Shown: one piece after another, positions 5,197 through 35,000 of the stretch
Layout of the letters: every line of letters begins with the position of its first letter
Numbering within the stretch: the first letter of the stretch is position 1
Source of the DNA: Candidatus Omnitrophus sp.
GTDB lineage: Bacteria; Omnitrophota; Gorgyraeia; Zapsychrales; Fredricksoniimonadaceae
Assembly (NCBI GenBank): GCA_020719005.1
Contig: DYQZ01000001.1
Span: 5,779 to 69,778, forward strand
Length of the DNA stretch: 64,000 nucleotides
Direction: 5' to 3'
The notes under the pieces: generated by a model
Told to the model about the DNA's origin: nothing
What the model saw: only the letters and a program-made list of their open reading frames with translations
Database searches by the model: none
Made by a program: the position numbers and the translations under genes

Positions 5197-5199
5197 GAT

Positions 5200-6673: not shown

Positions 6674-6677
6674 TACC

Positions 6678-7094: not shown

Positions 7095-7106
7095 AAGAAA
7101 GAGCGT

Positions 7107-9258: not shown

Positions 9259-9262
9259 TGTG

Positions 9263-10480: not shown

Positions 10481-10974
10481 AACACGAAAGAAGTTTGTTT
10501 TGACGTAACATATTGATGGTATCTAACTTATGGAACATGTAAGAATGTCCAAAGTAACAGAATGGACAATCTTTTCCGACGGGAATGTGGGTTTATTCCA
10601 GGATGCAAGAATGATGAGGGTGTGAGCAATCGAAGGCGCCCCCTCACCCTTCTGGTTCGGGATGACGTGACGGAGGTGTGAGATGACGCGGCACGTCATT
10701 CCGCGGCCGACTTGTGGTGAGCCAGGTCGAACCAAGCCCGAGGAATCGCCGAACGTTGTTACGATCCGTCATATCGAGCCCGCAGGCAAACCGAGACATT
10801 GCTTACGCTATCAATAAATAATTTTTTATACTAATTAATATATAAACAACTAAAATTTATAGTAAAAATAAACAAAAAAGCGGAAATAAAAAATAAATCC
10901 AAAGAAAGTTTTCTCCAAAGCCGTAAGTTGTTATAATTTAAAGGATTACGATAATAAAAAGATTTCTCAAAAAC

Positions 10975-11002
10975 TTGCCACGCCTTGATAATATGCTATA
11001 CT
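10975..11002 (+). promoter_or_regulatory. Sigma70-like promoter for the giant gene: -35 TTGCCA (10975-10980), 16-nt spacer, -10 TATACT (10997-11002)
   Basis: Near-consensus hexamers with 16-bp spacing sit directly downstream of a very AT-rich stretch (10800-10970, UP-element-like). The predicted TSS is about 11009, giving a ~60-nt leader to ATG 11069. Confidence 0.4.
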
Positions 11003-11068
11003 CTTCATGTCGTCCTTGGTGGGACGATAGATATGTTTCATGAATAAACCCGTATCAAATGGGAAAAC

Positions 11069-14000
11069 ATGGACGAAAACCGCAAAGACCTCAACAAGAA
11101 CGACATTAGTCCCCTTTTTGGGGATGAGTCTTTGCGCGCGGTGTCTGAAACAAGTAATATTCCAGCAAAAACCCCCTCCACAACGCCCCTGACCCCGAAA
11201 AATGGGCATGCGGCTTTGGTCAATGAATTCAAAAATATGGTTCCCGACGGTGTTACGTCGAAGGATTCAGCTGAGACCTCAGTGCCTCCGGCAGGCGTTT
11301 TTGATGATGTGGACCCCGCTCTCGTAGGTGTGGGCATGGGTTCAGATGGTTTTGTGTTGGGTGCTGAGGATGCTATTGTCACACCCGAAGGTCCGTATTC
11401 CAGCCGTTTTAGCACGTGGATGCGCGTTGTTGCTTTTGCGATCGTTGCTATTTTTCTACCAGATCAGATCAGCTGGGCGTTTAATTATAATCCTGCCGTT
11501 CTTTACGGGAATCAGGTTTCAACGGTCATGGCCCCCATGCCCGGGATGGATCTTCTAACACCAAAACAACTTTCTTCCATGCAGGTTTCGGCCAGCGTTA
11601 CCGACCTCTTAAAACAAGTTTCTGAAAAGAGCGCGGATAAAGTAAGCATCAAACTTGATGATAATCAAGGACTTATGGGCCTGAATGGAAAAGAGCCCGC
11701 TATCCTTGAGATCAACAACGAAGCCAAAATGACCGCGCCCCAGATCGAACAGGTGCGTGCGTGGTTGAGCGATCCGAAGATCAATGCCCTCAATTGCGGT
11801 GTGTTCGCGCTGAAAGAAATATTGTCTGGTAATGGTATAGATAAAACCGTTACAGAACTTGCTGTTACGACGATCAGCACCGATTTGATGGCTAATATCA
11901 TCAAGCCTGGCGATAAAAAACTTAAAGTTACGCTTTATTCCATGACCGAAGTTGCTAAAGCCCTTGGTCTGAACGTCAAGGCCTTAAAAGTGGCACCGGC
12001 TGAAATGCTCGCCCTTCCCAAGCCGTTCGTGGCGCATCTTTCCGACGAGCACTTTATTACAGTTTTAAAGACAGATGGCAATGATGTTGTAGTGAGCGAT
12101 ATGGGCGAAACGCTCCATATGGCGCGCGACGATCTGGCCGCGAAAGCCAGTGGTTTTGTCCTTTCCCGCGTTGATGCCAACATCCTTCCTTCCTATAAAG
12201 AGGTTTCTTCATCCGCCCAGGCTTTCGTGTGGGGCGACCGTTGGAAGCGTCAAAAGCTTCCGGGGCTTGAATCTGCAGGGTCACAGCTGAGAAAATATGC
12301 GATCGACATGACGATCAAACTCGTCACGGCGATCATCGCTTTCTTTTGTGGTCCGGCGGGTTGGATCTCCTGGATCGTTGCTCAGATCGCCGATGCGCTT
12401 ACTAGGATATGTGTTGTGGCGGGTGCTTGTACGGCAAAACAGGCGTTTATCATTAATACAGCAATAGCTGTGGCGACGATCATCTGTACGCTTGGGGCAA
12501 GTTCTTTAAATACAGCAGGACAACAAACCGCAGCACAAGCTGGCGCACAAGCTTTCAAGGGGGCTCTTACAACCGCGTTAGGAACTGTTGTAGGGACTGT
12601 TGTATATGCGGCAATCGGCCTTGCTATTGGTGTAGGCGCGGCGCATTTATTATGGAAAGTCAATCAAAAGATAGACGCAAAATATGGTTCTAGTTCACCG
12701 ATCGCAATGACGTTGAAGGCGGTTGCGTCCGCGGTTGTGACGGGTGCATGTACAACCGGTCTGTTTAGCTGGGGGAACGCTATTAAAGATGGTCTGAAGA
12801 GCATGGCCAGCGGAGTGGGTACAGAAGCGGCAAAACAAGGCGCACAACAAACGGCTGCGGATTTTGCTGTAGCGATGTTTGTTAAGCTTCCGAAGTCGGT
12901 ATTAGATGGTATTGGTATAACCTCAAGTAGTGATGCCTTTAGGAGATTTTTATATACACAAGGCGGTTCTTTGGCTGTACGCATGGCATTTAAAAATAGC
13001 AAGGATACGGCATTGGTTGATGCGTTGGCCACTCTTGGTGGAGCGGCAGCTGGACTGGCGGGGTCTTATATTGAACATGGAGCTACGACTGGAGACTGGG
13101 CGGGTGTTCCAACGTCTCTTGGAGAAGAAATAGAGCCCGTTGATCCTACAACTGTTAATACGATGGCGGAAGCCACTACATCCGACGCGCCCAGGTCAGC
13201 TGTAGGTCAGTGGATCGACACAAAGATCCATAATACGGGTTGGACAGGGGCGATCGTTAGAACGATGGGCAGAGCAACTCTCGAGGCGAGCGTTTCATTT
13301 ACTATGGGCAGGATGGAAAAGAGCGTTGTTGGCGAAGATGATGGTTCGGCCGCTTATCAACAAAAACTTTTGGGGTATCGTTCGTTGAGTTTTGGTATTG
13401 CTGGAATGATCACAGGGGTTTATATAGGAGTACGTTCGGCGTTGGATTCCAATGGAACCGGCATGGTATCTTCTTTCTTTAAGGGTTTTGGGGGTGGCAT
13501 GGTAACTGGCGCTATGGATAGTCTTACCAAAGCGTATGGTAAGCAGGATTTTGATACGATCATGAGTAATGCTCCTAAGCAGGGCGGGATAGGCGGGGAT
13601 GTCGAATATAACATGGCTTTGGTAAATGCGGCTCAAGGCATGTCTAATAATACAGGTATGACCTATGAATATTTCAGCAGTTGGGATGCGCAATGGAAGA
13701 CGATGAAAGAAGAGAACGCCAAGTCTGACAATCCGGTGAGTCAAAAAGAATTGCGCAAGGAATATCAAAAAGCTTTTGGTCGAGATATTCAAAGCACCCC
13801 CGGCATCACAGGGATGAACGGTATTTTAAAGACAGCTAATATTGATATGCGTGTCAAAGCTGTTGAGAGCGGTGTGAGTTGGGCTATGACCCGCGGGCTT
13901 ACTTCAGGCTCTCTTGAGCATCAGCAAGCCAAACGTGCGGTGGTCAAGCTTGGATTGACCTATCGTGGAAAAGAATTATTTGCTGGATCTGATCGACAGT

Positions 14001-17000
14001 TCGCAGAAAAGAACGGTCGTGCGTTGAGTTATTATGTAGAACAGGCTGAATTATATTCTGAAAAAGCCTCCACGTTATGGGGTGAGGGTGCATATACAGC
14101 TACGGTATTTGCTTCCGGTAAAAGAGAATTCAATAGTAATGTCGACAGTGAATATATGCCCGATCGCGATATCGTGTCAAAGGACGGCACGTATACAGCT
14201 AATTTAAAGACGGGCGAGATCAAATATTCAGATGGGCGCGTAGTGGTCGACGCGGCTACTGTTGGAACAATGCTCAACGAGGGTCAGCTGAAGGATCCTT
14301 TCAAAGTTGATATGAACCAGCCGTGGGCCCAGAACACGACTAAAGTCAACGCACGATATATTGATACAAGCTCGATGGGGATCGCACGCTTTGGAGATCG
14401 GTATGCGCTGAATAATGTGCCGAATGTTATTACTATAATGACGCCAGATGGCCAGAAGAGGGTCGTTAATAATCCTCTGGTTCTTTCCAGCTCTGTTTAT
14501 AATTTTGATGCCAAGCGCGCGGAAATGAGTGGTAATCAAGCGGCTTATATTCAAAATTTTCAGCAGGGTCGTTTAGCACAACAAGCGGCGTTTGAAAAAA
14601 CGTTGCCGCCGGAAATGGTTGCAACAGCGCAAGCGTTAGCAAAGAATGATCTGACCAATCCGCAGGTGCAGGCATTGATGAAGGCCAATGGCGGCGATTT
14701 TAATGGCGCCGTTCAGGCTTTTAAGAAAGAAGTGTTGAGGGTTTCCCCGATGCTTTCTTCTCCGAGCACACCGAAAGCATTCAATCATGATGCCCGTTCC
14801 CAAGAGATCGATAATTATTTGCAGCCCGTCGACTCCACTACACTTTGGAGTGTTTCAAGAAGGAACGAATTCGGAAAAGATAATCAGGCGGGGGTTTCGT
14901 TCGGGGTAATTAAAAATCAGGATGGTTCTTCGACACCATCAATGACACCGTCGATGACTTTATATCAGAAGACGCCTTCCGGAGAGCTTCTTGGTGTGGC
15001 CGCTTTTGTTTCAAGGGCTATGACCGCTGATAACACGAACGGGAAGATCCTTTCTGGTCAGGGTAGTTTAATGGCTTTTAATAGAGAAGGAAGTCTTGCG
15101 TCGCTTCGCCAGATGAACAATGAACAAACACCGTCAGAAGCTGTGCTGTCCGGCGGAATATGGGAAAAGACGGCGTTTGGGAATAATGGCGCCTCGTCGG
15201 CAAATATGCTTGATGCAACGTTCAAACAGATGAAGAGCGAAAACATCGACGCAAATATTGGCACCAAGCATTTGGTTTATGCCGGCATGGGCGATGGGAA
15301 CGAAAAGGCCGCGGCCTCTGTTGCGAACGATTTTATTTCTACTGATATGGGGTCTGGGGAAAGAGCATTAACAACAGTGACGACGCGTGATGTTATAGGC
15401 GCACGAAATATTATTTACTCGACGGATTCACAGGTTATTTCAAATCAAAATATTGAAAAGAACACGGGAAGATTTGTTACTGGGGTCGCGGTTGATAAGA
15501 GGGTTAATTTGCCCATGTTCTTGATGCCTGATAATGGCGTCTCCGGTTTAGGTGTGCGGCAGCTTTTGTTGAATGGTTCTTCGGAAATAGTAGATGAAGG
15601 CACGAGCCGTTTTCTTGGTGATGCTAAATACGCCACAGATGAAAATGGTTTGGCGGAGGCAAAAGGTTTTAGTTTTGATGGAAGATTGAAAGGAATAACA
15701 GTTGATGGCAAGACACAAGGCCGTGTGCTTTATCAATTCTCTGCCGGCGAGTCATCTAAAGATCCGTTTCAAAAGAACGGAAGTCAAGGAGAGATGAGTC
15801 AAGTTCGTGGGGAAAAAGACGCGTATCCTTTCATGCGTGCAGTTAATTTAACTCAGGCTGGGGACAATCTTGTTGTAAAGAATAATGGGAGCAATGGTTT
15901 TCAGATCGAAGGGCCACAGACTTTTCGTTCGACTGCACAGGGCGGCACACATCCGACCATGATGCCTGTTTTGATGAACGACACATACACGTCGACACAT
16001 TTTGCAGCGGCTCTTGTGAATGGAGGAAAGACGGTTACGAAGGATGATAAAGGCAATAATGTATATGAAAACGGAACCATGCTGGATGTTAGCGCGTTTG
16101 AGTCAAAAGATAAGGTTAATGGAAAAGATATTACTAACAAGACGATCGTGAACGGCAGCCTTGTTTATGATGCTCAAAATGGTCAGTGGCTTGCTGAGAA
16201 GGGCAATACAGCGTTGACAGGTAGTGCGGAAAGAACAGTGGACGGAACAAATAAAATAATGGTTTCCAAAGATGCTCCGATCGTGTTGGCAGATCGCAGG
16301 GTTCAATTTACTTTGACTGGTGAGACACAAGAGAATGTTCCAGGGTTCAATAAACAAACACAGCAAGGCTGGGCGCAAGAAGTAAAACAGGGAGAGCTTT
16401 TAAAGCAGGATGAAGCAATTGTGCCGCAAGTCGGCGGCACTGTTGGAATACCTGGTTTTAATGACAATAAAGCACAGATGAAGATGCTGAATGATGTTGA
16501 GAAAGCAAATCAAACAGATGCGAAAATTAGTGGTATTCAAGGGACCAATGGGGAAGCTCTTCCGGCAGTAAATGTTGAAGGTTCTGTTTCTTATCGGTTG
16601 GGCAATGAAAATAGCGCGCTTAATACTGCTTTGTGGGACGGTGGTTCAAAGTTAACACTAAAGGATAGTTCCTTTATTAGAGCTGGAAACAATTTATATT
16701 TTGCAACACCCCAAAAAGGAAAAGAAAAAGAAGTTTCGACTGTTCAGCTCAACTATGACCAAAACGGTAGTATTTATGCTGAACAAAGCGGCGCGCCGAT
16801 CAAACTTGGCCTCTGGTCACACGCATCAAGTTCTGATACACACTTTACAGAATTTACGGTTATGGGTGATCAGTTGGCGCTTACAGGCGCTTTGCCTACG
16901 ACCAAGGGAGATTTGAAATTATTAACTGCAGAGGGTATTAGCGCCCTGGATGCCAATCCAAATTTCTTTAGCGGTAAGACATTAAAAGGTTTGGGTATTG

Positions 17001-20000
17001 ATGGTGAGGCTGTGCATGCCACGGTGGCAACGCATCAAGATGGCACATCTTCTATCTTAGAAGCGCCCCTTGATTATGCGCGTCGTCAAGGAAAAGATAA
17101 TGGAATTGTTCTTGGCACAGATCCCAACATTCAAGTCAGGCAACAAAAACCACAAACTGTTTTTCAAGGCGATAGTTTTGTCAATAAGAATGTCGAGGCA
17201 AAAGTAGAAACCTTGGCTGATTTTGCATTTGCGCGAAACATGGAAGATAAGGATACTTTAGGTGGTTTCATTGAAAATCGTAATCCTTTGACAGTTAAAC
17301 AAAAGGAATTTGTTTTTCAGCCAGCCGGTATTTCAACTAAAGAATCTGAAGTCCCTGTTGAGGTAGTTGCAAAGAAAGAAGATGTTCTTAATAGCAATAT
17401 TATTGTTGTTACGGCTTCTCGTAATCCAGAGGCATCATCTGCAGGCCAACTCACAAGCGCATTAGCTGGAGGAGATTTTATTCTTTCGGCTGAAGGGGAA
17501 GAAGACACCCTTGAGTTTAACGCTTCTCAAAGCGGGCTTTCATTAGGATTGGGTGAAGGAACAAATATCCGCGTTACCAAAAGTGTTCTGAATGCCGGAA
17601 CGTTCCAGTTTGGATCAAGAAATCAAGACGGTACGTTTCAGGATGTTCACACACTCAGCGCTCAAGATAAAGGCGCAACATTATCCACCGATAATCTTAC
17701 TATTAGTGTTGATAAGCAGGGTCTTGCGTTTAAGAATGCTGCTGATGGTGTGTTGTTGGATTCAGTTGTCTCTAAAGCCGGGTCTGTGGAGGCGAATAAA
17801 GGCATTTCGATGGTCTTTAACAATGATGAACAAGGGAAAAAAGTTAAGGGCTGGATCCAGGCTGATATGGCGGGCAACCGAGTATTAAATGATCAGGGCG
17901 CATGGATCATACCGATGGATATGATGGATGGAAGTGTTGATGGAACAGGAAGCGGTCTTATTGTGACCCATGTTAATGGTCAAGGTTTTCGTTATGCTGA
18001 TATTGTTGGCATGAATGCGGTTTATGATAAAGATGTCGAGGCTGATGACCGGACAAATGATGATACCTGGGCCTTTAAATTACAAGGAAAGAATTTTGAG
18101 CCCGCTTCTGCAGAAGGGGCAGCGCAACAAGGGCCGACCGTTGAGCCAAAAGCCAGAAGTCTGCAACAAGCCCAGCTTCATGCGACTGAAGAAGTGGGGC
18201 GTGGGATTGTTGAACAAGATAGTTCTGCCAATGTTGCTAATGATGTGGCAATCGTTAAAGGACATAAAGGGCTTATTAATACGCCCATAGCCCAACGTTT
18301 ATTAAACACAGATAACATTAGTTACAATTTAACGTATGGTGGTGTGAGCAAAGATGGCGAGATCGTCGTTGGCTCTACCGCTGGTTTAGGCAACAGTGCA
18401 TCGATCGAGCATGTGAATACGAAGATCAACAAAAATGACAATAGGACAATCGAAACAAGAGCTGTTTCATTGATTGGGGCTACAAAGTCCGAAGAATCTA
18501 TCGTAGGACAGGCTATGGGGAAAGTTGACGGTATTTGGAAACGGGGCGGAACATATAAAGAAACACCTAGTGATACAACGACTTATTTCTTTGGCGAGAA
18601 TGAGCTTAAAGATGCTAAGGGTAAAGACAAAGCCAAGATCGCAGGTATTCAGCCGTCAGTAAAAGATACAAATCGCTATTTACATCGGGCTGTTGAAATT
18701 AATGGTTTGTTTGTGATGTCAAAAGTGACAGGAGATCAAGGGGCAGATGTTGTTTGGAATGATGAGTTTGAAAAAGTGATCGCAGGCACTTCAAAAGATG
18801 GAAGATTTTATACAACGGTTGATGAAAAAACGAAAGAAAGAAAAGTTTTTGATGTTGAATCAGGGCTTTTGGTAACGCTTCAGATCGGACAAGATGATAA
18901 AAAGACTATAACAAAGAAACAAGAAATAATAAATCCAATAACGAAGAAGCTTGAAAAGGTTGACGTAGTTGAAACGATCGAGTTTGAGAATAAACACGAA
19001 GTATTACGTACAGGGACGTATGGTTTAGTAAATTATGACACATATGAAACAAAAAAGAGCGCGACCCCTGAAGTTAGCAAAGTGATTGTTTGGGACGGTG
19101 TTGAATATAATATGATCACATATCTTGCTGGAGACCGGCAGATTGTGAAGCTTGTGAATACTAAGATGGAATATGATGTTTTTGATTCGTTAGCAAGAAC
19201 AGATGTTGGTGCTTCTATTGCTGGATATTTTGTTCCTAATGCAAATATGCAAGATGTGCAACGCGTTGCAACAAGTAATCAAAAAGCAAAACAGGAGCAA
19301 AATGTTTTTGTTTTTGAAGTAAATAAAGAAGGTACGTGGGCGCCGTTAAAGATAGACCTTGGTGGCGAATATAGCGCCCCATTATCCAAAGATACGCAAC
19401 TTTGGATCGATCAGAAAACGGGCGTGGTTTCGTTTGGCCCAGTAAAGAATGCTGATGGCAATGTAGGTAAAAATGATTATTTGGTGGTATCTCATCATGA
19501 CGTGGTTACAAAGAAGTATTCTGGCTGGTCGAAGTGGATGGCTAGAAGAAATGTGGGTGGGTTTCTTGATGGTTCGGATTTTTCAACCACATTGAGCACA
19601 TCATTGGCCGCAAAAGGTCATACGGCTTGGTCAGAAGTGTTGGCTCCGAGTAATACGAGTGGGCTTAATGGAGTGGCCACGGTTGCGACTATTCCTCTTA
19701 TTGCTGCAGGCACAGCATTAAGAGTGGCTCAGGCTGGCGGTATTGTGTTGAAGACAAGCCAGACTATTGGAGCTGCGAGTAAGATTTTGAATGTTGCGAA
19801 AGCTACAGGGGATGCGTTCTGGATTGGGAATGCTGTTGTAACGAGCACGGGAATTCTTCGCGGACAGTCTTTCAGTGATGCGACAGCGACTGGTTTTTCT
19901 TCTGGTTTGTCTGCTGCGAAATTGAATTTAGGCATTACGGCTCTTGGGTCTGTGGCTAATGGGCTAAATTCGGCATTGTTAGCTAGTAAGACCGTGAAAA

Positions 20001-23000
20001 ATTTTCAGAATTCTTTTAATACGGTGAAGGCCGCTAAGACAGCGAAGGATGTGTTTGCGGCAGTGAAAACGGTAAATGGCGGTAAAATGATGTCAACGGC
20101 CCTTTATACAGCCAGAGCCGCTACTTCGGTTGTTGGCCGTATGGCGATCAATGCTGCTGCTGGCGGCACCGTGAACATGGGAGTTCGGGCATTTGATTAT
20201 GCGATGACCAATCCTGATAAGGGTTTTTCGGGTTATTTTTCAAATGGGACTGTGTTACGTGATATTGGTATAGGCGCCTTGACAGCAGGGGTGCTAAGCG
20301 GCGCGAAGATGGGTGTGGGTAGTCTTTTTACTAAAACAGCAATGCCTTCTTTAGGTATTATCAGTTTCGGAACAGTAGGCGCGACAGGTTATGCCGCAGA
20401 TAGATATTTGAGTGGTAAAGAAATGACCTGGCAGGGAGCTGTGGGAAGTTTTGTTGGCGGTATGGCACTTGGCCGTTTTGCGATGTCAGCAGATAAATAT
20501 ACAAAGCGTGTTTTATTAGGGGAAGAAGGAGCCGCGCAAAACGCAACAAGTGCCATGCGGGTAAAAGTGGCAGAAGGAAAAGGAAATTGGCGCGAACGCA
20601 TGGTTGCTAAGACCAGTGATGCGTATAAGAATACTTTTAATACTGGTCTAAAACAATTTGCTGTTAAGTCTACTGTTGGTGCGGGGTTAGGTCTTGGTGT
20701 CTCTTATATGGATAGTAGCAGGAAATATACAGCCTGGGAGAGAGCTGAATTTGCATTGATGGGTGCTACTGCTTTCGCCATGACGGGCCTTTCGATGAGA
20801 GGGAGTGTTTCTGCTTGGTCGCGTCAGGGGCTTAATGGCCGTGCGGTAGGATTGGTCGATTTTGGAAAGAATCCGTTCTTATTTTCAAGATTAAGTGCTG
20901 CGGGCGCTCTGGATTTTGCAATAACGATGCCCCTTTTTGGTGTTATTGAAACGCCGATCCGTGCGGCTATGTATTATGCATTGAGTGAACGTAGTTGGGA
21001 GAAGTCTAAACAAGATGCTTTTGATCGTTTTAAAGGAGAAGCAAATAATCCGTTGGGTATTTTAACGCAAGGCATGGTAAATGGTGCTGAGATGGGTCTT
21101 AAATTAGGCCCAACGTTGGCGGTCTTTCAGGTTACAACAAAATCATTGGCGCTTTCTCGGGCGAAAGTTGGAAGAGGTTCCATAGCGACAAGTATGTTGA
21201 AATTTGATAGAGCCGTTATTAATGGGCTTTCTCATAAAGTAACACACATGATGCCCTCTACGATCGCATGGCTTACGGGCGTAGAGCTTGGAACAGAGTC
21301 GCTCGTGGCTTCGATGAATAAAGAAGGTTCCATAGTCTATAATGCAGGTTTTAGGAATGGCATTGATATTAAAGCCGCCGAAGCTGTGCGTGTGGCTAAA
21401 GCCAATGGGCAAGATCTTTCTTTGGAAGAGGCTCGCGCCCAACAAATTCAGACGATTGCTGGTGAAGTGGCTTTTGTCAGTTTGATCTTTAAGCCATCAC
21501 CTACACATGCCTCTGACCTTGATATTGCCAAAGAAGCTGTTAATAAAGCGCAAAGAAAACATGGTCCCACTTCTCCACAGTATAAAGACGCGGTCGCAAA
21601 ACGTGATCTTTTATTGGCACAGGTTAATCAAAACAAGAAGTTAACGGCAACAGAGCTGTATGAAGAACAAAGTAAACTTACTGAAGCCGCTGAGGCCGCC
21701 GCTAAGGAAAAAGGTGCTCAGCCGTCTAATGCGCCGTCAACGTCCAAGGGTGGTTTTATTAGCACTTCAAGCGTCACGTTTAGGGAAGCCGGCAAGAATA
21801 TTAGCGAGGCTTTTCGCAATTCTCGCCTTGCTCGTGCGGGTGATAATATTTATATAGTGCGCACGATCAAAGATCGTCTTTCACCTAACAGATTAGACAC
21901 CTCCATTGCCGCACTAGAAGCGCGTGAATATGCGGCGTATAGGGCGATGGGCAAGCAGGTGCTTTCAGCTAAACAGCCCGGTCAGACTTTTTCCGGAGCG
22001 CGTTACATTCTTGAAGGCGCTCGAGCGGCAGTCGAAACGCGTCAAAAGAATCAAAAACCGGGAATAGAGGCAGATCAGGCTCGAGTGAAGGATCTTCAAT
22101 TATTGAGCAAGATTGCGAGTGATCTGGCAGGTAGAATGGCTGAAAGTAAAGGTCTTGTTGATGCGGCAGGCAAAAAAACGTTTGAGGCAGATAAGAAGGC
22201 TATTGAAAGCCAGAGCATAGCTTTTGAAAGAGAGTTAAAAGCAGTTGAGGGTCAGCTTTTTGAAAGAAGATCTCTGGAGGCGAGGTTAGAGGCGCTTACA
22301 CAAAAACAGCAGAAGAATCCCACAGATGCTACGACGCAGATTGAAATCGCCAAGGTTCAAAACAAGATCGATCAACTTAATTTAATAACCATTAAAGATG
22401 TCAATTTACAGGCGCGTAAGGCGCAGATGTATGATGCTCTTGAAGCTAAGATCGTGAAGGCGAAGACTGCGGCTCAGGAAAAGATAGACGGAGGAAAGAC
22501 TGTTAATCCTCAGGATGCAGCTCAGATCGCTAGGTTGGAAAAAAGGCAAGAAAAATATCTTGAGGCAAAGAGCCGCGATCTAATGGGGGATTTGGCATCG
22601 GGAGAGCTCTTCAGAAGCTTGGATGTTTCGGGATTAAAGAATGCCGAACTGTCAAAACTGCTTGCCGCACAACGGCAATATGATCAAGTAGTGACTTTTC
22701 TGAAAGAAAACGCGATCAATTTTGGTTCTAAACAGGCATTGGCTTATGCAAAACAGATGCGTGAAACTGTTGTTGATGTTTATGGCGAAACATCTTCGGC
22801 TAAACAAATTGGTGCGATGGGTCAGAATCTCAATAAATTAACGACTATCTTGAAGGTTGCGGGTGTATCTGACACAGGGGTGAAGAAATTTGCTGTTGAA
22901 AACAGCATTATCCTAAGAAGCGAAGTTGTGAAGCATCAGCTTTCATCGATTGAAGGTTTTCAGCAGGGTGACAAAGCCCTTTCTAGTAGTCAAAAAAGAT

Positions 23001-26000
23001 TAGCAAAGATTAACAATGACCCAGTCGCCAGGACCGCCGAGTTATTATTCCAAGCCCAAGTGAATCAGCGGATGCATGATCTAGCTAAAAGGAAGGGAAA
23101 TAACGATAGTGCTACTGGATATAAGCAGGCGGCTGAGAAGCTGTTGCGGTCTCCTGAGTTAAGGGATCTGTCACAAGCCAAGAAGATAAAGATGGAAATG
23201 TCGAACTTGCACGGTAAGGGCATTCTTCAAATAACATTTGAGGCGTTGCAAAGAAAAACAAACAATGAACTGAAGAATAATCCAGATTATACAGCGAAGC
23301 AAAAGTCAGAGATTCAAGCGAAATTGATAGAGGGCATGGCTAAGGTTCTTTCAGAGTATAAAGGAAAATCTATTAAAGAGGTAAAATCTGATAAAGGTAT
23401 AAAAAATATTGGTAAAGCGCTTGAGGCTCTTGCCAAGCAGGAAAGAGCTACTGATCCTGTAGAGAGAATGAAATACGCACAAGAGGCTGTTAAAGCACTT
23501 GATAAAGTAAAAAATGGTCCTGCAAGCCGTAAGACAGGTATCGATGTTCACCAGATGAGTGAACAGTTGAAAGTAGATATTAAATATGGAGAGATGAGGG
23601 GGAATCAAAATAGCCGGCTTCAATATAGCAGGATGACGTCTAGCAATCCAAAACTCGTACAACTCCTTGTTGAAAAGCTGATTGCAGTGCAAAAGCTCGA
23701 GACAGAAGTTGAGGCGTGGGAGAAGGCAGGCAAAAAAGGTCCTGAACCAGCGCTTGATTATAAAGGTCGATTAACTGAAAAAATAGAATTAATGATTTTT
23801 GATGCTTTGGTGAAAAAAAATCGTGTTGTTGCTAAAGGGGTTCCGCTTGTGTCGGATCTTTTCAAGATGAATGTTAGCAATTATCAGCAAGAAATGTCAT
23901 TTTTAAAAGAAGTTGATACGCAGAAGAAAGAGGCAAAGAAAATTACGGAGTACCAATTCTCGAAGGATGAAAGAACAATTTTAAACAATGAACAAACAAG
24001 AATAGAAGGTGAATTAAGAAAAGTATTTGAAAAGGCTTATAACGATAAGATGCAATCTCGGCCCGTAAATCAAACAGAGGCAGAGTTTAAAGCAAAAAAT
24101 CCTGAACCAACGCTAACAGACGGAAACAAGAAATTTATTGAGTTTGTTCTTAAAGCAGGTTTTGTGGCGGCAAAGGAAATCCGTATCGCAGGACGTGTTA
24201 AGAATCTTCCTGTTATTGCATTAGGCCTTGGTGGTGGAAAAACCACCATGGAGACGGCGCTATTAGGCGCGGTAAATGGATTCTTTAAAGGTGCATCTGG
24301 TCAAAAAGGGATTCTTCTTATTCTTGCCAAGCCTGATGTGGCGCAGGCAAACAAGACATTGGATAAAAAAGGTATCTTTAAGGGGTCGAGCAATCGTGAG
24401 AAGATCACCGTAGAAGAATTTCAACAGATGAAGAAGGAGGCGCTTGCTAAAGGAGAAGTGCTTGTTTTAACTAATACACAGATCAGCCAATTAGCCCTTG
24501 ATTTTAAGAATAGCCGTGGCCATGCTAAAGGTGATCCGATGTTGGATGCAAGAAATCCGTTCAAGGATTCTATGATCGTTGCGGATGAGGTCCACAGTCT
24601 TTTGCTGGCGCCCGCCATGATACAAAGCACAGGGCGCTCTGGCATGAGCTTTTTGTTATCTCAAGGCGTTGCATATCAACAGCGCCGTCAATTGGAAGCG
24701 CAATATGTTCAGGATCTTGTTAAGACAGCTAAAGGTATCGTTGGAAATAAGAATGTGAAAGATGTTCTTGGAGATCATACATTTGAAAGATCAGTCAAGG
24801 GCGACATCATCAAGCAGTTTGAAAGGAACTCTCCAGACGCTTACAATGCCATGAAAAAAGCAGGTGTTCTTGATATTTTTGTTGATGCTATTGGGCGAGG
24901 ATTGAATGAGTATTCAAAGAATGGTTATCTGATGGTTGAGCGTAATGGCAGGATGGAGATGGTGATCCTTGATAATATGCATGGCAATGGCGTTGCACAG
25001 TATGGCCGTAGCCTGACTTCGCGCACAGGTCTTAATGAAGATATGTTAGCGAGGATCTTCATAGCAACAGAGTTTCATGGCATGAAGAAACCTACTTTGG
25101 CGCGTCTTGTTGAAATGGCTACATCGCATCAGACGGTTCAGGTCACTTCGGGCGATCTTTTTGGTTTGGTTCCAGGCATCATGGGTTATACCGGAACGCT
25201 GCCCGCGATCGAAATGCCAGCAGGGTTTTTGGGAGCGCAAGCGTTGGAAGCAGGAAAATCTGCAAGTGCCCATATGCATACGAGAATGCAAGTGCGTATT
25301 CGTAGTGATGGCCGCTCTACTATAGAGGGAATGGTCGCTGACGGTATGGCCGTCTTAAACGGCAAATTGCACTCGGGTAGGGATATTGTTGTTTTAAACA
25401 GCAAGTATGCTCATGAAAGATCTGGCTCTTATGATGGTTTGCGTCATTTGCATGGTAAGACCGTCAATGGTAAGAAGGTTCTGGTTTTTGAAGTTCATCC
25501 CAATGAATTGGCGGCAGTTGAGGCGAGTTTGAATAGAAATAAAATAATAAACGGCATATCTGTTGAAGGTAAGAGGGTTGTTCTTATTACAGGAGTTGAG
25601 AGCGGCGCTTCATTTGAAACAGTGACCGGTGCAATGCGGGATTATTCTGCGCGCCCTAATTATGGTATAGATCAGGCATCACAGAGATTTAATACGATCA
25701 AATTTAAGAATCGTGCGAAGACTGGAAGTGAAGCAAGTGATACGCTGTTCTTATCAACGCGCGCAAATGGTAATTATGTTGCGATCTATAATGTAAGTAA
25801 AGAGCATGCTGATCCTTCTTTTAACCGCGCTGAAGCACAGATATTGCGTCATTTGAACGAGAAATTGCAAAGTGCTACAACCTTAAAAGAGAAAGCCATT
25901 ATTTATAAAGAAATCCGTAGTGCCGTTATTCAGTTTTCACAACGCATGGAGTTTGATGCCGCGCGTCAAGCTGCGACAACGGTGACGTCTAATGTTAATA

Positions 26001-29000
26001 CACAAAAGGGCCCTGTTAATCAAAAGGCTGTAAATGAAAAGATTGATACTGTACGTCATCAATATGCGCTTAAGATGGCGACAGCTGATCTGAGCATACG
26101 AGGCATGTTTGATCAAAAGGAGTTTGCAGAAGCAAAAGATGAATCTGCAAGGGTCCAGCTTTTGAATAATTTACAGGCCCATGTTTACGCCAATGTGAAT
26201 GGTCTTGGTTATTATACGATGCAGATCGCGTCAGCTGCCAAGCATCAATATATGCAATTGAATTTAGTTGCCATGTCATCAAATGCTTCGGATGCCGGAG
26301 TTAGGCTTGATGAGGATGGTCCTGTTTTGATCAAGGCTGGCCAGGTGATGGATCTAAGCCAGACCACAGCGGATAGCAATCGAAATATTTATGGCAGTTT
26401 AGATGACTGGAATACCATTAAAACAGGCACCGTCGCAACTCCCGTGAGTTTTGTGGCACATACGGATGTTCAAAACACCTCTTTTTGGCAAACCAATCCG
26501 ACCGAGAAGAAATGGGTTGCGGGGGATATTCTAAAACAGGGCGATAAATTAGTTTATTCGCAACAGGTTGCCATGCCTGTGATCTCTGGCGGCAGGACCC
26601 TTACGACGATCAATACCACAAGATCTTATGAATATGATCAGGGCAAAGGTATAAGCGATCCGGATGCGTTTATTGATATAAAGGGTATTGCGGATGCGGT
26701 GGGTGCGAATGCTCAAGATATAAAGATATCAAAACCAAGAGAAATGGATCTTGGCAAGTTTCAAATGATAACTGATAGCAACGGGATCTTGCGCGGGGTG
26801 ATCTTTGCGGGTGCTTTATATAAGGATTTCTTAAGTATAAAGAATAACGGAGATCAGGTTGAATTTGATGTGTATACCAAGAGCGACTTGGCGCATAGTG
26901 ATGGCCGTCGGGATGAAATGCTCGTGCGTTCGCGTGTGGTGTTGGAGCGTAGCGCTGAACAGTTGAAAGTTCTTGAAAGCATCATTGATAATGAAGCCAC
27001 GATCTCGATCCCCCGTAGAGATATCCATCGTGGCGATCTGGTGGACTTCTCTTATAGTGCCGGTGCTGAGCGTCAGACTGTTATCAAGGATCAATTTGGC
27101 GAAAAAGCCAAAGTTGTGATGTTTGGTGAGGATTTTGTCACTCCTGATAAGAAAAACATTGTGATACGTCCTAATGATGATGTGAAGTTTGGTTTGCCGG
27201 ATGGAAAGATCGTTCGTATTCAGACCCTAGATAGTTTTAAATTAGCCAAAGATGGATCGTTAAAACATTTACGCACCGAGCTTGCCGATGATGTTGAATC
27301 GTTCAAGAAAGGCGATGTTCTTGATCGGAGAAATGGCCGGATCATGCGCAATGGAGAAAAGACCGGCGTGATGTTCCACGATCGCGCGCTGATGAAGAAA
27401 GACGGTCAATATCAGATCAGCGCTAAGGATGATGAATTAGTTGAGTTCCTGACTCGTGAAGATATCGGTCAGCTTATTGGTGAGAATTATGTTGTAAACG
27501 CCCAGGATCTTGAGAAAGCTCTTGCAGGACACACAAAAGCGAATGTGTTTGTTCGTTCCATGCTTCAAGATGCGGCCAAAAATAATTCTGATAAAGAAAA
27601 AATAAAGCAAGTCCTTAAGTATGCTCAGGATAACCTTGATCGGCAAAAGGCGGGAATTACTTTAGGACTTCAGGCATTTTCTGCGGATAAGCTTGAAGTG
27701 ATTGATGAGAAGAAATATCAGGGGCCGATGGTATATAGCATCGTTGTTGGGAAAGTATCCGATAAGGCCGCGGAATATTATGCTGATATATTGAGTTTCC
27801 TTGCAGAGTTGTCAGGAGGCAAGACGTTGACGATCACACCTGCGATGGATATCCGCAATTCTGCGGCGCAGTCAACAACAGATCATTTTCATATGGGTAC
27901 AACATTATCCCTCTGGTTTTTGACCGGTGAATTAAACTTCAATGAAGCTGGTGTTTTTGTTCATGAATTATTGCACGAGTGGAACAAGAAACAGGTTAGA
28001 GACGGGAAGCCGGATAGCTTCACACAGGCTCGTATTGAGAATAATACCGCTTTACAGCAGATCGCCCGGGCCATATCAGGTATTTATGACAAGGAATTCT
28101 CAGCGGAAGAGATCTTGACCCTTTTCATTGAGGTTTTTGGTGTGAACAGGTTGATGACCGGCGCACTTCCTGATGCTGTTTTGGAAGCGCTTAAGCCGAT
28201 CCAGCCGTTCATTAAGATGCTTCAGAATAAGGGGAAGAACTTGCCCAAGTCTATCTTAAAGGGTAAGCAGGAAATGATGATCGAAGCCTATAAGGCTGGC
28301 GATATAAAGGAAGCTAAGAATCATGCGACATCGTTGAACACGATGTTCCTAAGAGGCCGCGGGCTTTCACTCAAGGCGCTGTTCACATTCCGTGGGGCAA
28401 AAACCGTGCTCAATGCCATGACCAATGAGCAGTTGGCCGCGAGCGTTTATCAAGACAAGAATACGAAGAATGATGTGGCCGCGATCAGGATCAAAAGCGG
28501 CGGCCAGGACGTGACGCTGACTCAGCCGGTGCAGAATGGTTTAACGGCTGTAGAGTTGCGGGAAACGTTGAGCAAAATGTTTGAAGAATCGGCCAAGGTT
28601 GCTGAAGGCATGGTTCAGATGTATCAGGTGTTTCTGAAGACTAATGGTGATGAAAAACTTGCTTTTGATGAGAAGGCTTGGGACGCGGCGATGCTGGCGG
28701 CGACAACACTGGAAAATGCTAAAGGATATATTAAATCTTCGGTAGATGTTAACGGGCTTGACATGATGCTGGCTGGTGTTAATGAAATGGTTCAAAAGGC
28801 TATTCTTGATGCTAAGGCGAACGAGGAAATGTTAAAGGCTAAACAGGCAGGGGTTGCAACTCCGCAGTCTACGGCCCCGCCAGAGGGATCAAGTGGTCTT
28901 CTTAATCCTTCTGCCCCCAAGATCGACATCGCTTCCGATGTCAACCCCAATGAAATTGTTAACAAGATCGAATCACTTCTTAAGGATAATCTACAAGTTA

Positions 29001-32000
29001 TCCTTACAGGAGATGTGTTCAGATTAGCTCAGAATGAGAAGATCCGCGGATGGGTTGTGGATGAATATGTAGTCATTCAGGGAAATGAAGTAGGATCATT
29101 GGAAGAAAGTCAGGCTAAGGCGCTTGAGACGGAAGTGAAAGAAATTTCAGGGTTGACTGTTGGAGATGCGAGCAGGGCTCTTCAGGGCAAGACCAAGGAA
29201 GATATATATAATCTTCGCTATCTCATGTTAATGAATAACGATGAGATCGATCGCTTAATGAATGCAGCACCGGCTCTGTTCCAGGACGAAGTCGGTTCCT
29301 GTGTCCGCACCTCCGCTTCTTCTCAGCAGAAACTTGAGAAGGTTTGGATCGATTATGCTCAGGGTAAATATAAGGAACCTGCCGCGTTCTGGGCATGGGT
29401 CTTCAAGACAGCGAATGGTGCTGAGCTTGATGAAGAGGTTAAGACGATCTTGAAGAAGATCGCGCTTGATGCTCCGATCGCGATCGCGGCTATTGCTCTC
29501 GTGCCTGACTTTAAGGATGCCATGAACGCTGCGGCTCGTGCTGAAGGTATCAAGGCGATCCTCGAGCTCAAGTTCGGCAAGAAGATCCCGAACGATGTTC
29601 TGATCGCCTTCCAGGGCATGACCGGAAATGTTGATACCTCGATCGTTGCTAATGGCGGCACGGGCAGCCTGAAGCCAGCGAAGATGAATGCTTCTTTGAC
29701 CACGGCTGTTAATCGTTATAACAAGGGTGTCTGGAGCAAGACTCAGATGGATGAGTTCCTTGCGGCGTGGACTGGTCGTGGTTATGTGGCTGAATATTAT
29801 GTGAGTGAAAAGACCCAGAAGCAGAGCGTGCGCGTGATGACGGTTGTTCCGCAGTATGCCAAAGGCTATAAGCCGAAGGGCAGAACGGCTGATGTTGAAG
29901 AAGAAAATCCTGCGCTCGCTAAATACAAGAAAAATTTGACCCGTATGCAGGATCGTCTTGCCAGGGGTGAGATCACCAAGGTGCAATTCAATAATTGGAT
30001 GGCGCTCCAGGGCAAGCTCACGGGTCAGGATGAAGTGAATGCCGCTGATATGGCGCGTGAAGCCAAGAATTATCCGTGGAACACGCCGGGTTATGACGCG
30101 CTTCAGAAGGCCGCGGTTACCAAGACCGAGGTTGTGGCAAGCGCGCCGGCTGTCGCGGCTCCTGCTAAAGCAAAGCCTGCGAAGTTTGAAGATACTGGTT
30201 TGACGATGACGGATGATGGTTATCAGAAGCCGGTGACAGAAGTTCCGGCACCGGTAATCGTGCCGGCTGTTATGCCTGCGCCGGTATCGAGTGCGATCCC
30301 TCACTTCGTTCGGGATGACGGCAAGATAGACGCTTCGATGTCTACCGAGCAATATAAGGCGTATCAGGAACTTTGGAACAAGCATGGTCACTGGCAAGCG
30401 GGTTCGCTTGATGAAAAGATCTTTGCGCGTAGCATTTTGGCATTTATTAATAAGTATGAGCTTTCTGCTGATCTGAAAGATGATGTTGGAAGATTGAACA
30501 GGGTGTTGGCTGGCGATGCGCTTATGTCGAGATATCCTGCTGGTCTTTTGATGAGCATTAAGACCGCGGCAAAGAATCACCCATCCCGTCCGGCGGCTGT
30601 TGCTCCCGCTGTTGCTAGAAAGACAACACCTCAACAAGAAGCTGAATCCTATGAGGCCTACCTTGTTGTGAAGGGCAGAACATTGTCTGCGAATGTTATT
30701 GCGGGGATCAGGGGTTTGATCAAGTCGTTGAATAGCATGCCCGGTGAAGCCCTTAAAGCCATGGCGCCAAAAGAAAAATGGGCGCATGTTGAAGCGATCG
30801 GTCAAGAGGCTGGTGTTCCGGCGAATGAATTCAAGCCTGCGGTCCAGACTGCCAGGGATTGGGTTCAGACGCACATGCCATATTCGACCCTGTCTCTTGA
30901 GACCAAGAGTAAGAAAGACGAAGCGCAGATCACTCCTGAACAGCCTCAGACATTGGATGAGATCATCGCAGGCGCGATGATCAAGGTTGATGCCATTGCC
31001 AAGAATGTTCCGGCATGGGATAAGAATAAGGAAGAGATCAAGGCTGCTGTCACCAAGGTCTTTACAACCACTATTAGTGAAGCCAAGAAGCCGTTCACGC
31101 CTAATGTGTATCAGATCACGCACACTATTTTAAGAGTGTTGAATAATATGGATACATCTTCCACGCGTACGCCGTGGGCGATCGTTGAGAAACTTGGTTC
31201 TGGTAAAACACTCGCAGAGGTGTTGGCTGTTGAAGCGACCTTCTCGTTGTGGGAGGCTCAGAACAGAGAAGCCGGAGATTATGAAGTGTGGGTCTTGCGT
31301 GATGCGCTGGTCGACGGCATCAAAGCCGATGATCCTTTTGCCTGGTCCGCCCTTGAACGCATTGCCGGGGTTTCGAATGTTACGCGTTTGATGGCTGATC
31401 CTAACGATCATCGCAAGACCATGGACGTTCCGCTTATCCCGACCACAGCCGCGAATCCGAAATACACACTGCGTTATGCGGTCAAAGACGCCATTTTAAA
31501 TCGCGCGAATGAATTTAAGTATCATGACGGTATTCTGCCGAACATTGTTCTGGCCGTGATGGATGAAAAGCAGGGCTTTGATGAGACGGGTGAACAGATC
31601 GTTTCAAGCGGCATGCCGTATTTTGAAGCTCAAGAAAAGGGCGGCAATGCACTTCAAGAGGGTTTGGCGCATGCCCGTTTTGTGCGCGACGTTATTGGGG
31701 AAGTTGATGCGCTCGAAGCAAAATATAAAGAAGGCGTTTGGGATAATCCCGTCGTTGCCTTAGGTGATGAGAAGAAAACACAGGGCATTGGCGTGAAAGA
31801 CCGTTTCAGCGCGGTGCTTAAAGCTGAATATAGACCAGAGGTCGAGGAGTTGTTTGCGAAACTTCAAGCCGATAAGAAATTACCACGCGATGTAAAGGAT
31901 ATTGAGACCTTCCTGCTTTATGTGAACGCTGTCGGTGAATATCAGCGCATGGCTGAACTTAAGAATTATGATACTGTGCCGCTTGCCATGCTTAAGCCGC

Positions 32001-35000
32001 TCTTGGATTTCTTAAAAGAACAGGGCAAGGTATCTGCCGCAACAACGCCCGAAGAACAGGCCAAGGCGATCAGCCGGTTGCAGGAATTACAGGGAGCGAT
32101 CAAACAGACACAGTTATATCATCTTCGCGGTGAAGACAATGTCGTCCGCGAGAATACGATCTTCGGGAATAATATCCTTGCGGCTGTTGTGACAGCGCGT
32201 GTGGCCCGTCAGCATATGGGCAAGGATGGTTTTGATGAGAAGACTGCCGACTTCTTTATTATGAATGCGGTCATGGCAGAACGTAAAGAACACATCACGA
32301 TCGCTGAAGCTGTCCATCAGATCGGGAATAAGAATAAAAAGGAAGAAGTTTCCAAAAAGAAGTCGAATGGCAATTTGAAGATGGGTTACACGACGGGAAC
32401 CCTGGCCAAAGAAGAGCCATTAAGAGCGCTCGGCGCTGATGTTGTTATTGTGAGCAAAGAAGATCCTATTGAAGCGGAGCGTATCCGTCTTTTTGATACG
32501 CGTAAGGAGCAGTTGACGTCGGTGATCGAGAGTGTGAAGGCGGATTTGAGCAAGGCTAAAGATGTTGGCGTGGCTATTTATGGTTCCGAAGATGTGCTTT
32601 CTGAAGCACGGGCTGCACTTGAAGCAAAGGGCATTAGGCCGCTTTTTGTCAGTGGTAAAGATCGCCCTGAAAATGAAACAGAAACAGCTAAGATCCATAA
32701 AGCGATACAGAATGGCGGCAAGGTTGTTGCCCTTATTGTTGGTGATCCGACGGGTGGAAATCCGTTCGCGACGACCAGGGGGCCTGCCGGACGTTTGGGT
32801 TCGACCTACCTTCTTTCTCTTAAAGGCTTGATGCCAGCTACCCAGGCGCTGAAACGCGCGGGCAGTGAGAACCGTGTGAATATCGGGACCGATAAGGATT
32901 CATGGCATTATTATCTTAGCCGTGAAGACAACATGTTCACTTTTGAAGAACGTGAAGTTATTCCAGCGATCACTCAGGAAGAAACACGTCAGCGTCTGGT
33001 GCGCCGCGCTTCTGATGAGATCGATGAATTGGTCGCACATCGCAATATGCTTCATGTGGCGCGTGTTGTTAATAATAAGGAAGCGATCTCAGAGAATCTC
33101 ATGGGTGTTATTGCGCGTCTGCAGAAACAGTCACGGTTCTTGCGGCAAGAGGATGGCAAGTCCTCACTCCTTGTGGCTTCTCGTGGTGAAATGGACCTTA
33201 AACAGGGCGAGATCCTGGATGAACAAACAGGACTGATCTTCAATAAGAGTAAGAACGCGCGCGTTGATGAAAAAGGCGTGGTTGTTCCTGTTGAGCTGAC
33301 CACACCGATCGCCTATGGTGCTATCCGTGATGGTAAGGTTGAACGGGTTGATATTGATACTAATACAGGCATCGGCAGGAAAGAAGTTGCTCCGCTGACG
33401 ATCAATGGAGTAAAGATCCCCGTTGCTCTTGAAGTTGAGGTTAAGAATGGCGAATTCAAGAGAGCTCCTGAACTTCGCGTGACAGAAGATGTAGAGAAGA
33501 ATGGTATTAAGGTCAGGAAGGATCAAACGATCTTTGAAACAACAACCGTTCTTGGTTCTATCGCAGCTTTCTTTGAGAGCGACAAAGACCTTGTTCTGAG
33601 CCAGGCATTGGTAAAAGATCAAGAAAATGGCACGTATAAGGCTCTGACGATCACGGATAACAAGATCGAAATGCCTGTAACAGATATTGAGGATGCAAAA
33701 TTGGTAGTGCTTGTATCCATTGAACGTGAAAATGGCAGGCTTACTCTTGTTCAAGGGCTGCGTCTTAATGGACTCACAACCGCATTAACAAATGAAGAAC
33801 TGGTCAAGCTGGCCGCCACGTTCTTAAGCAAATATAACGAAGAATCCTTGTTCTTCTATGGTCGGAACGATCCGTATCTCAGGCTTATTGCAGAACTGTC
33901 TTTAAAAGAAGGGGCCTTGGTCGAGAATCGTGTGGCTATATTGGCGGCGATCAAGTTCATCCGTCAACAGGCTGGCCTAACAACACAGGTCACCGGCCAA
34001 TCCTTGGTTGATCAGGTTATAGCAAAGAATGTCCAGACTGGACAAGTTGCTGATACCCAAGTCGCCACAACGCAAAAGACACAGAAAACACAGAAGAAAC
34101 GCGGGTTCTTTGGTCGCTTCTTTAATAAGGGTGCGGCTACCGCGATCGCGTTGACTGGCGCCAGCCTCCTGAGCCCCTCTGCCAAGGCCGATGTTATGCC
34201 AATGGGGAATGCTGATCAGACTCCGGTCACTATGTCTAGCACAACACCGGGCTCTCTCTTTAGCCCCATGGTCATGAGCGAGAGAGACGAAGGGACGCTT
34301 GGGACTACTCTTTATCGTCCGACCACCCAGGCCGCTGATGAGACCAAGGCTTTGCCGATCACAGGCAACACCATGGCGCCGTTTTATCCTGTGGGCCCCG
34401 TTGTGCCGCCTACTCCAACAACACCTGATCTACCGACAGCACCGAGTACGCCAGGTCTTCCGGTCATACCTTTAGTGCCCTCGGTCACACCTCCTATCTT
34501 TACAGGTGGCGGTGGTATGGGCACCGGCCCGGGCCTAAGCCCGATGGTCAATATATCGATGATGCCCAAGCTATCTATGCTTGAAGGATCACGCTTCTTT
34601 GATGGACGGTTGAATGGGCCGTCTGATTCGGAACTCGCTTCACGTTCCGGCGACGGCGGTCGTATTGAGTATGGCCGCTTCTCCTCTGAAGCGCGTCCAT
34701 ATGGCATTACCAGTGAGGAAAATGGGAGCATTATTGTTGATCGTATCACGAGAGAAAGGGCGAAGTTAGCAACTGTTGACGCTAATAACGGCCTCCAAGC
34801 GCAAGCTCTGTCCGCGCGTGGAGTGAACGAAGACCAAAGGCAGGCACAGAAGAAGTACGAAGCTGAAGAAGATCAAAACACATCCGCGGTTCGTCCGACA
34901 CTCGCGGGGGTTGTTAAAGACGGTTGGGCACAGGTAGTGAAGAGTAAGAAGCATGATCAAGGCATCAAGTTGGCTAATGTCCAAGCTGCCGGCTCGAATG

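Follow-up and report, generated by a model that had tools for sequence, protein, structure and literature searches.

For proteins that span tens of thousands of residues, the route by which they thread into or across a membrane, and their processing, are open questions in the field; the main published clue is the SecA-like domains within such giant proteins. Most of the giant proteins described from Omnitrophota contain divergent SecA_DEAD and SecA preprotein-binding domains without the scaffold/wing region and are encoded close to genes for type II secretion (West-Roberts et al. 2023, bioRxiv 10.1101/2023.11.21.568195), and the giant proteins listed in a 2026 preprint include a cluster of 20 with a SecA DEAD-like architecture (10.64898/2026.06.07.730766). 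We analysed a 64,000-nt stretch of the Candidatus Omnitrophus sp. contig DYQZ01000001.1, hereafter the window, which carries a giant open reading frame (ORF) in a locus of the same architecture, since T2SSE and T2SSF genes lie upstream and the encoded protein has an N-terminal Peptidase_C39 domain (10.1101/2023.11.21.568195).

Inside the giant protein lies a module with the motifs of superfamily 2 (SF2) helicase-like ATPases. Our preferred reading, in which we place even confidence, is that the module is an orphan, very divergent SF2 ATPase of the DExH type built into the giant protein, with an intact lobe 1, an insert, a SecA-like motif III and a diverged lobe 2. SecA-like motors in giant proteins of Omnitrophota, and of Actinobacteria as well, are already published, and what is new here is the extreme divergence of the module, its rarity and its linkage to an HExxH module. 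The window would add to giant proteins a second, far more divergent SF2 motor family, one that is invisible to Pfam and NCBIfam and very rare.

SF2 motifs and relatives of the embedded module

All coordinates are positions within the window, and residue numbers of the module are counted from nt 11048 unless stated otherwise. The giant ORF is in frame 2 of the + strand, where it is open from nt 11048, has its first ATG at nt 11069 and is still open at nt 64000; its length is therefore at least 17,651 codons, with the 3' end beyond the window. The module corresponds to about residues 4370-4920 of the giant protein. Its limits agree with the span of 24150-25800 in the initial annotation, which had proposed a SecA/SF2-like motor here on the basis of two peptides. 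Both peptides are present in this frame, GLGGGKTTMETALLGAVNGFFKGASGQKGILLILAKPDVAQANKT from about nt 24224 and IVADEVHSLLLAPAMIQSTGRSG at nt 24575-24643, except that the first had been quoted with 'GKGAS' where the actual letters are 'FKGAS'. The features of the module are as follows.

11069..64000, + strand: giant ORF, a single frame without a stop codon to the window end
24155..25810, + strand: divergent SF2 ATPase module (lobe 1, insert, motif III, lobe 2), from family alignments and hhalign
24212..24265, + strand: motif I / Walker A, VIALGLGGGKTTMETALL; G, K and T invariant in the family
24302..24358, + strand: motif Ia-like strand, QKGILLILAKPDVAQANKT; aligned to the SNF2 'LIlxPasL' and SecA KGVHVVTVNDYLA columns
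24452..24511, + strand: motif Ib-like segment, GEVLVLTNTQISQLALDFKN; family form KIxVMSYKEMFEAGL
24551..24628, + strand: motif II / Walker B of the DExH type plus the next strand, RNPFKDSMIVADEVHSLLLAPAMIQS; N-P-F, D-E-x-H and M-I-x-S invariant
24629..25126, + strand: insert between motifs II and III; ~165 residues in the window, up to ~330 in relatives
25127..25207, + strand: motif III block, HQTVQVTSGDLFGLVPGIMGYTGTLPA; resembles SecA 'QTLAxITxQNYFRxYxKLxGMTGTA'
25376..25702, + strand: putative lobe 2; beta-alpha-beta pattern in both AlphaFold models
25811..26260, + strand: family-conserved C-terminal extension of the module, through VNGLGYY, from the family alignment

The motif set is collinear with that of SF2 and comprises motifs I (GGGKT), Ia, Ib, II (DEVH), III (GYTGT), V (ESGAS) and VI (QAxxR). 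The P-loop GLGGGKTT is at residues 4392-4400 (GGGKTT at nt 24230-24247), and the DEVH of motif II is at residues 4513-4516 (nt 24584-24595, inside IVADEVHSLLLAPAMIQSTGRSG). The ~115 residues between motifs I and II lie within the 100-120 expected for SF2, and in the window GYTGT follows ~200 residues after DEVH.

Relatives of the module are extremely scarce. An exhaustive phmmer search against 1.84 billion cluster representatives returned only three (E 6e-11 to 4e-5), and a profile of an 83-column segment found only two further fragments among 5.8 billion sequences. A pattern scan yielded one relative locus in a GTDB metagenome-assembled genome (MAG) labelled Candidatus Elulimicrobium (Patescibacteria group; 7,650 nt, fully open), and a metagenome scan with a relative as the reference yielded one on a 91.8-kb JGI contig (5,007 nt, fully open). 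This amounts to about eight known instances of the family among 15 billion public proteins. Word-indexed homologue searches with a 700-residue query and with a family alignment gave no matches and missed even the three known proteins; a metagenome scan with the window sequence as the reference and a scan of viral contigs found nothing.

All relatives with readable context lie within very long or frameshift-broken ORFs. Two of these loci (L002 and L023) are open across their entire length, and two of the related proteins (P0001 and P0002), from ENA metagenome contigs, are encoded in runs of + strand ORFs that abut one another. On the two ENA contigs with relatives (L003, 1-9863; L004, 1-18500), the ORFs abut or overlap on the same strand and have no Pfam matches; such runs are likely giant genes that were split by assembly frameshifts or that use a different genetic code. 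The similarity of the window protein to the related loci extends to about residue 5,880 (nt ~28,700).

In a six-member alignment, in which the other members are 23-28% identical to the window sequence, the invariant columns concentrate on the Walker A G-K-T, N-P-F, D-E-x-H and M-I-x-S, and the family additionally shares GYTGT(A/L), SGE(S/A)GA(S/N) and Q(A/V)xxR. This conservation of the motifs is beyond chance. The module profile found no internal paralogue within the window. Other GGKT strings in the giant protein (residues 1659, 3815 and 5590) were considered as copies of the module and were not matched by the profile; the site at residue 5590 is not conserved in L002.

Profile-profile comparison places the module among the SF2 ATPases. 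Using hhalign, we compared the family with alignments of 17 SecA/SecA2 sequences and of 8 SNF2/RapA-type sequences. Lobe 1 aligned with SNF2 over 109 contiguous columns from motif I to motif II (P=3.4e-4), and the segment comprising motif III and the linker aligned with SecA over 46 columns (P=0.0017). As a calibration, true cross-SF2 pairs were run by the same procedure and spanned 6e-16 to 7e-3: SecA versus SNF2 gave 2e-4 to 9e-4, UvrB versus SecA 7e-3, DinG versus SNF2 9e-4, HsdR versus SecA 8e-4 and RhlE versus SecA 2.4e-6, while an ABC ATPase control gave 0.09 with SNF2 and 0.36 with SecA. With lobe 1 inside the calibration range and better than the control, the module behaves as an SF2 lineage that is about as distant from SecA and from SNF2 as these two are from each other. 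Membership of the module in the SF2 helicase-like ATPases is thus supported at the level of sequence profiles, and the SF2 part of the initial proposal stands, whereas its SecA part finds no hidden Markov model (HMM) or PDB sequence match.

Both AlphaFold models contain a beta-alpha-beta pattern in both halves, which weakly supports two tandem RecA-like lobes in the predicted fold. Foldseek searches of the PDB with the first model returned mainly SF2 helicases (RIG-I, Dicer, Mot1 and Hef), none at E 1e-3 or better. With the insert-deleted model, the matches were eIF4AIII (5.4e-4), KaiC, Lhr, Brr2, CshA and Cas3, at E of about 5e-4 to 2e-3, and SecA (2fsh_A) at rank 9 (E 1.6e-3, probability 0.91) with the highest query TM-score, 0.31. 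Since both models are of low confidence, we regard the fold matches as weak evidence.

Several results weigh against our preferred reading. The whole module reaches a P of only ~0.01 against either comparison alignment (0.016 over 113 columns with SecA, 0.0077 over 106 columns with SNF2), and lobe 1 is nearer to SNF2 than to SecA (3.4e-4 versus 0.015, the latter over 47 columns). The insert has no similarity to SecA or SNF2 (P=0.42 and 0.18), and lobe 2 is not significantly similar to either (P=0.019-0.044 and 0.16). No Pfam family matched nt 23648-26650 at E up to 1, and the HMM comparison that the initial annotation had suggested gave no SecA_DEAD, SecA_PP_bind, Helicase_C or other helicase, ResIII or SNF2 match for five members when Pfam and NCBIfam were searched with an E cut-off of 10; PDB sequences searched by phmmer and hmmsearch yielded nothing relevant, SecA included. 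The AlphaFold models are poor because the alignments are so shallow, with a mean pLDDT (predicted local distance difference test) of 39.7 for the full module (four sequences) and 44.0 for the insert-deleted construct (five rows), and the TM-scores of the Foldseek matches are 0.2-0.3. In addition, the window copy is the most divergent member of the family, the SecA-specific evidence is mainly one 27-column block that was picked after the alignment had been inspected, and we infer the topology, ATP hydrolysis and substrate of the module.

Comparison with SecA and with SNF2-type ATPases

The alternative that survives best, which we nevertheless consider unlikely, is that the module is a true SecA descendant, whose nucleotide-binding domain 1 (NBD1), preprotein cross-linking domain (PPXD) and NBD2 have changed too much for HMMs to detect and which pushes a polypeptide through a membrane channel as the published SecA-like domains of giant proteins would. 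As in SecA, a P-loop lobe 1 comes first and a large insert, at the place of the PPXD of SecA, separates motifs II and III, an 'xPxIxS' segment comes straight after Walker B ('TPLIIS' in SecA, 'xPMIxS' in the module), the motif III block has the form IT....F/M......G-x-TGTA, and a putative second alpha/beta lobe has the same strand order. A permissive maximum-accuracy (MAC) alignment by hhalign to the 17-sequence SecA alignment is collinear, starting at Walker A, passing DEVDSILIDEARTPLIIS and 'GMTGTA' and ending in the strands of lobe 2. Its sum of probabilities, 175.5, exceeds those of all 150 column shuffles (66 +/- 26, maximum 119), as does its score (29.7 versus 17.8 +/- 2.8, maximum 25.7), and the reversed alignment was also lower.

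In 15 of the 19 SecA and SecA-like sequences, the Walker A block of the family falls on the SecA Walker A, and the seven-residue block SVPMITS has SecA 'RTPLIIS' as its top position in the canonical SecA sequences printed. The SecA-type motif III context (TLAxITxQNYFRxYxKLxGMTGTA) is present in the module family, and the best position of its 27-column block is the SecA motif III in 17/19 sequences, with scores of 22-33, compared with a mean of -24.5 and a maximum of 25.1 over 16,875 positions elsewhere in the giant protein. Among the seven E. coli proteins tested, the block is specific to SecA, which scores 30.2 versus 11.4 or less for RapA, HsdR, UvrB, RhlE, DinG and YjiA; the exact tail probability in E. 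coli SecA is 3.9e-7 per position, or ~3e-4 after correction for protein length. We take these resemblances to be real but note that they were selected post hoc.

The locus context also agrees with the published precedent, in that the SecA-like domains described from giant proteins share with the module the embedding in a giant protein, the adjoining type II secretion genes and the N-terminal C39 peptidase. The published versions have no scaffold/wing; for the module no Pfam SecA_SW match was seen either, and the SecA comparison alignment covered up to E. coli residue 627. In contrast to a position near a C-terminal membrane anchor, the module lies ~4,400 residues into the giant protein.

An HMM built from our own 17 SecA sequences reached the family only at E 0.03 or worse, z was only 3.0 in an ungapped block-chain test against SecA, where 3 of the 500 shuffles did as well, and blocks from the PPXD core and from lobe 2 did not map to SecA. 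The insert has no detectable similarity to the PPXD. SecA has DEVD where the module has DExH, and lobe 1 is closer to SNF2-type sequences. Assignment of the module to the SecA family is therefore not supported by these sequence comparisons.

Other bacterial proteins of very large size that do not belong to the Sec pathway also contain SF2/SecA-type motors. The plasmid CP113870.1 of Candidatus Megaera polyxenophila, a Rickettsiales symbiont, encodes adjacent proteins with SecA-like domains of 5,226 and 1,589 residues (L006, 1-6900). The 1,589-residue protein matches the SecA HMM at 1e-73 and a protein of Embleya sp. (NZ_CP108785.1) matches it at 2e-32. We tried these proteins as a bridge between SecA and the module, and they have no detectable similarity to the module family (E above 0.2).

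The putative strands of lobe 2 are in SF2 order, DIVVLN (25382-25399), VLVFEV (25478-25495) and RVVLIT, the last of which leads into the motif V-like GVESGAS (together 25568-25618). At motif V, where SecA has NMAGRGTD, the window has GVESGAS and its relatives have SGESGAS or AGEAGAN; none of the members has an arginine there. After a strand of the 'WHYDF' type, QAxxR is found in 5/5 members that cover lobe 2 (DQASQR in the window, within nt 25631-25702). This matches the Q/H...R core of motif VI by spacing alone (E. coli SecA Q570...R574). The NBD2 arginines R509 (in TNMAGRGTD), R566, R574 and R577 (in motif VI) of E. coli SecA are needed for its ATPase activity, and equivalents of SecA R509, R566, R572 and R577 are absent from the module family. 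The search for a motif VI arginine finger, which the initial annotation had called for, thus recovered one conserved arginine, while the R509-type arginine and most of those of SecA motif VI are absent.

Another candidate for motif VI was the C-terminal 'HDSRLSxxQ' of the relatives, which might correspond to the 'HESRRIDNQ' of SecA. It had this as its top position in only 6/19 SecA-like sequences. We prefer QAxxR because its spacing is the canonical one of SF2 and the window retains this motif, whereas in the window the HDSRLSxxQ motif common to the other members reads HADPSFNRAEAQ.

Rather improbable, in our view, is that a DExH translocase or helicase of the SNF2/ResIII kind, dependent on nucleic acid and without a role in protein transport, became fused into the giant protein. 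The DExH Walker B, which is not the DEVD of SecA, is shared with SNF2/RapA-type and other DExH SF2 ATPases (ResIII/HsdR, RIG-I-like and Ski2-like), as are the spacing of motifs I and II, a motif V that lacks the DEAD-box arginine and the 'QAxxR' form of motif VI. Lobe 1 is most similar to SNF2/RapA-type sequences, with a contiguous alignment over its whole length, RapA and HsdR give higher scores than SecA for the Walker A and Walker B blocks, and by eye, 'AGESGA...YD...QAxxRA' resembles the SNF2 'AGGxGxN...DxxWNP...QAxDRA'. Mot1, Rad54 and INO80 are among the weak Foldseek matches.

Against this reading, motif III and the linker (P=0.19, 44 columns) have no significant match to SNF2, and lobe 2 is unrecognisable by the same comparison. 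Motif III of RapA follows ~27 residues after motif II, whereas GYTGT in the module family is displaced by the insert of 165-330 residues. Since motif III is not 25-30 residues after motif II and no SNF2_N, ResIII or Helicase_C Pfam match was obtained for the members, the family cannot be placed in SNF2 from its sequence. Moreover, no nucleic-acid-binding domain was detected near the module, and the ORFs to which the family is restricted are very long or frameshift-broken and have many enzyme domains.

Very unlikely is a decayed pseudo-ATPase that perhaps still binds nucleotide via lobe 1 and serves only as a structural or regulatory spacer, an idea consistent with a lobe 2 that has no significant match to any SF2 profile, with the missing motif V arginine and the single motif VI arginine, and with the divergence of the window copy, including its altered HDSRLSxxQ, but opposed by the invariance of the Walker A G-K-T and the Walker B D-E-x-H across members that are so divergent. 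Because these residues are invariant across divergent members, nucleotide binding by lobe 1, and probably catalysis, looks to be under selection. Efficient hydrolysis by means of lobe 2 appears doubtful from its sequence.

Possible function and the linked HExxH module

Downstream of the ATPase module, the window protein shares a second conserved region with the related loci.

27812..28690, + strand: co-conserved HExxH module; tblastn to L002 and L004, 27-29% identity, E about 1e-32

The counterparts lie at about 6640-7530 in L002 and at 16078-16950 in L004. The HExxH is invariant, within EAGVFVHELLHEWNKK in the window (nt 27944-27991; the motif reads HELLH), EAGVFLHELLHEYNK in L002 and EGGVFLHEMVHEYFKK in L004. 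In the window, the HExxH module is ~1,100 residues downstream of the ATPase module, and it is about 900-1,260 residues downstream in both of the two related loci that reach far enough. Pfam gave only a sub-threshold Peptidase_M61 match (E 0.09), and we regard the HExxH module as a candidate zincin peptidase.

In our preferred reading of a divergent SF2 ATPase, the module would be cytoplasmic, given its need for ATP and its position between the N-terminal cluster of candidate membrane helices and the strong candidates that follow at about residue 8276. Lobe 1 would bind ATP, and the nucleotide state would be used to clamp or move a polymer, which is less likely to be a nucleic acid. From the context, we favour a cytoplasmic ATP-gated clamp or translocation aid that would act on the polypeptide of the giant protein itself and would possibly feed the HExxH module. 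Because most of the lobe-2 arginines are missing, ATP turnover is probably slow or dependent on a partner.

A bolder idea, which we put forward with little confidence, is that the unrecognised SF2 lineage and the HExxH domain form a conserved ATP-driven cassette for self-processing or self-threading, that is, an unfoldase plus peptidase built into its own substrate. Such a cassette would be specific to giant proteins and common to the window organism and at least one Candidatus Elulimicrobium MAG. If the module is active, K4398, E4514 and the HExxH histidines are defined sites at which to probe whether giant proteins have an export or processing engine of their own. An inactive module would instead exemplify how a motor decays within a giant scaffold.

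The giant ORF and its surroundings

At the N-terminus of the giant protein (window 11069-12700), the Peptidase_C39 match (E 1e-7) covers residues 287-365 counted from the ATG and is followed by four to five candidate membrane helices at residues 417-532; the next strong candidate helices are those at about residue 8276. This arrangement of a C39 domain and candidate helices recalls the N-terminal half of ABC exporters of the bacteriocin type. Further along, the giant ORF encodes many enzyme domains, namely NAGPA, guanylate kinase, 2H phosphodiesterase, NUDIX, M28, UPRTase, HAD, PEP-utilizers_C, Metallophos, HATPase_c and Bac_transf. Because those found between 36200 and 62700 include guanylate kinase, UPRTase, NUDIX, HAD, PEP-utilizers_C, HATPase_c and Bac_transf, which normally use cytoplasmic substrates, this content suggests that much of the giant protein is cytoplasmic, in contrast to the envelope protein of the initial annotation.

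The module had also been described as flanked by long coiled-coil regions. Upstream, residues 3450-4350 contain 50-59% E/K/Q/R/A/L and few P/G, a composition compatible with a long helical or coiled region, while the composition of the downstream stretch at 28.5-33 kb is less extreme.

Upstream of the giant ORF, a same-strand, operon-like run of genes occupies 251-10480 of the window, in which the following were recognised.

2378-3982, + strand: T2SSE
3955-5196, + strand: T2SSF
5200-6252, + strand: YhcG/DUF1016 PD-(D/E)XK nuclease
7107-8027, + strand: pilin-like protein with an N-terminal methylation motif and a phage tail-collar domain
8009-8908, + strand: TraU-like protein

The T2SSE protein is also present, in identical form, in NCBI assembly GCA_974335155.1 and in a Logan assembly of SRR1559353. 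No family was found for four further ORFs of this run that were scanned, and none is assigned to those at 6194-6673 and 6636-7094, which lay outside the scan. Rfam and tRNA scans of the window gave no matches. GC skew on the + strand is positive in all 2-kb windows (0.08-0.30), and the large genes are all on the + strand. Two long antisense ORFs within the giant gene, at 29255-31123 (622 residues) and 52172-53833 (553 residues), are probably spurious. A GC-rich 240-nt segment at 10560-10800, which has no unusual structure (z=0.15), precedes a strongly AT-rich stretch at 10810-11000 just upstream of the giant ORF, and the AT-rich stretch is probably the promoter region.

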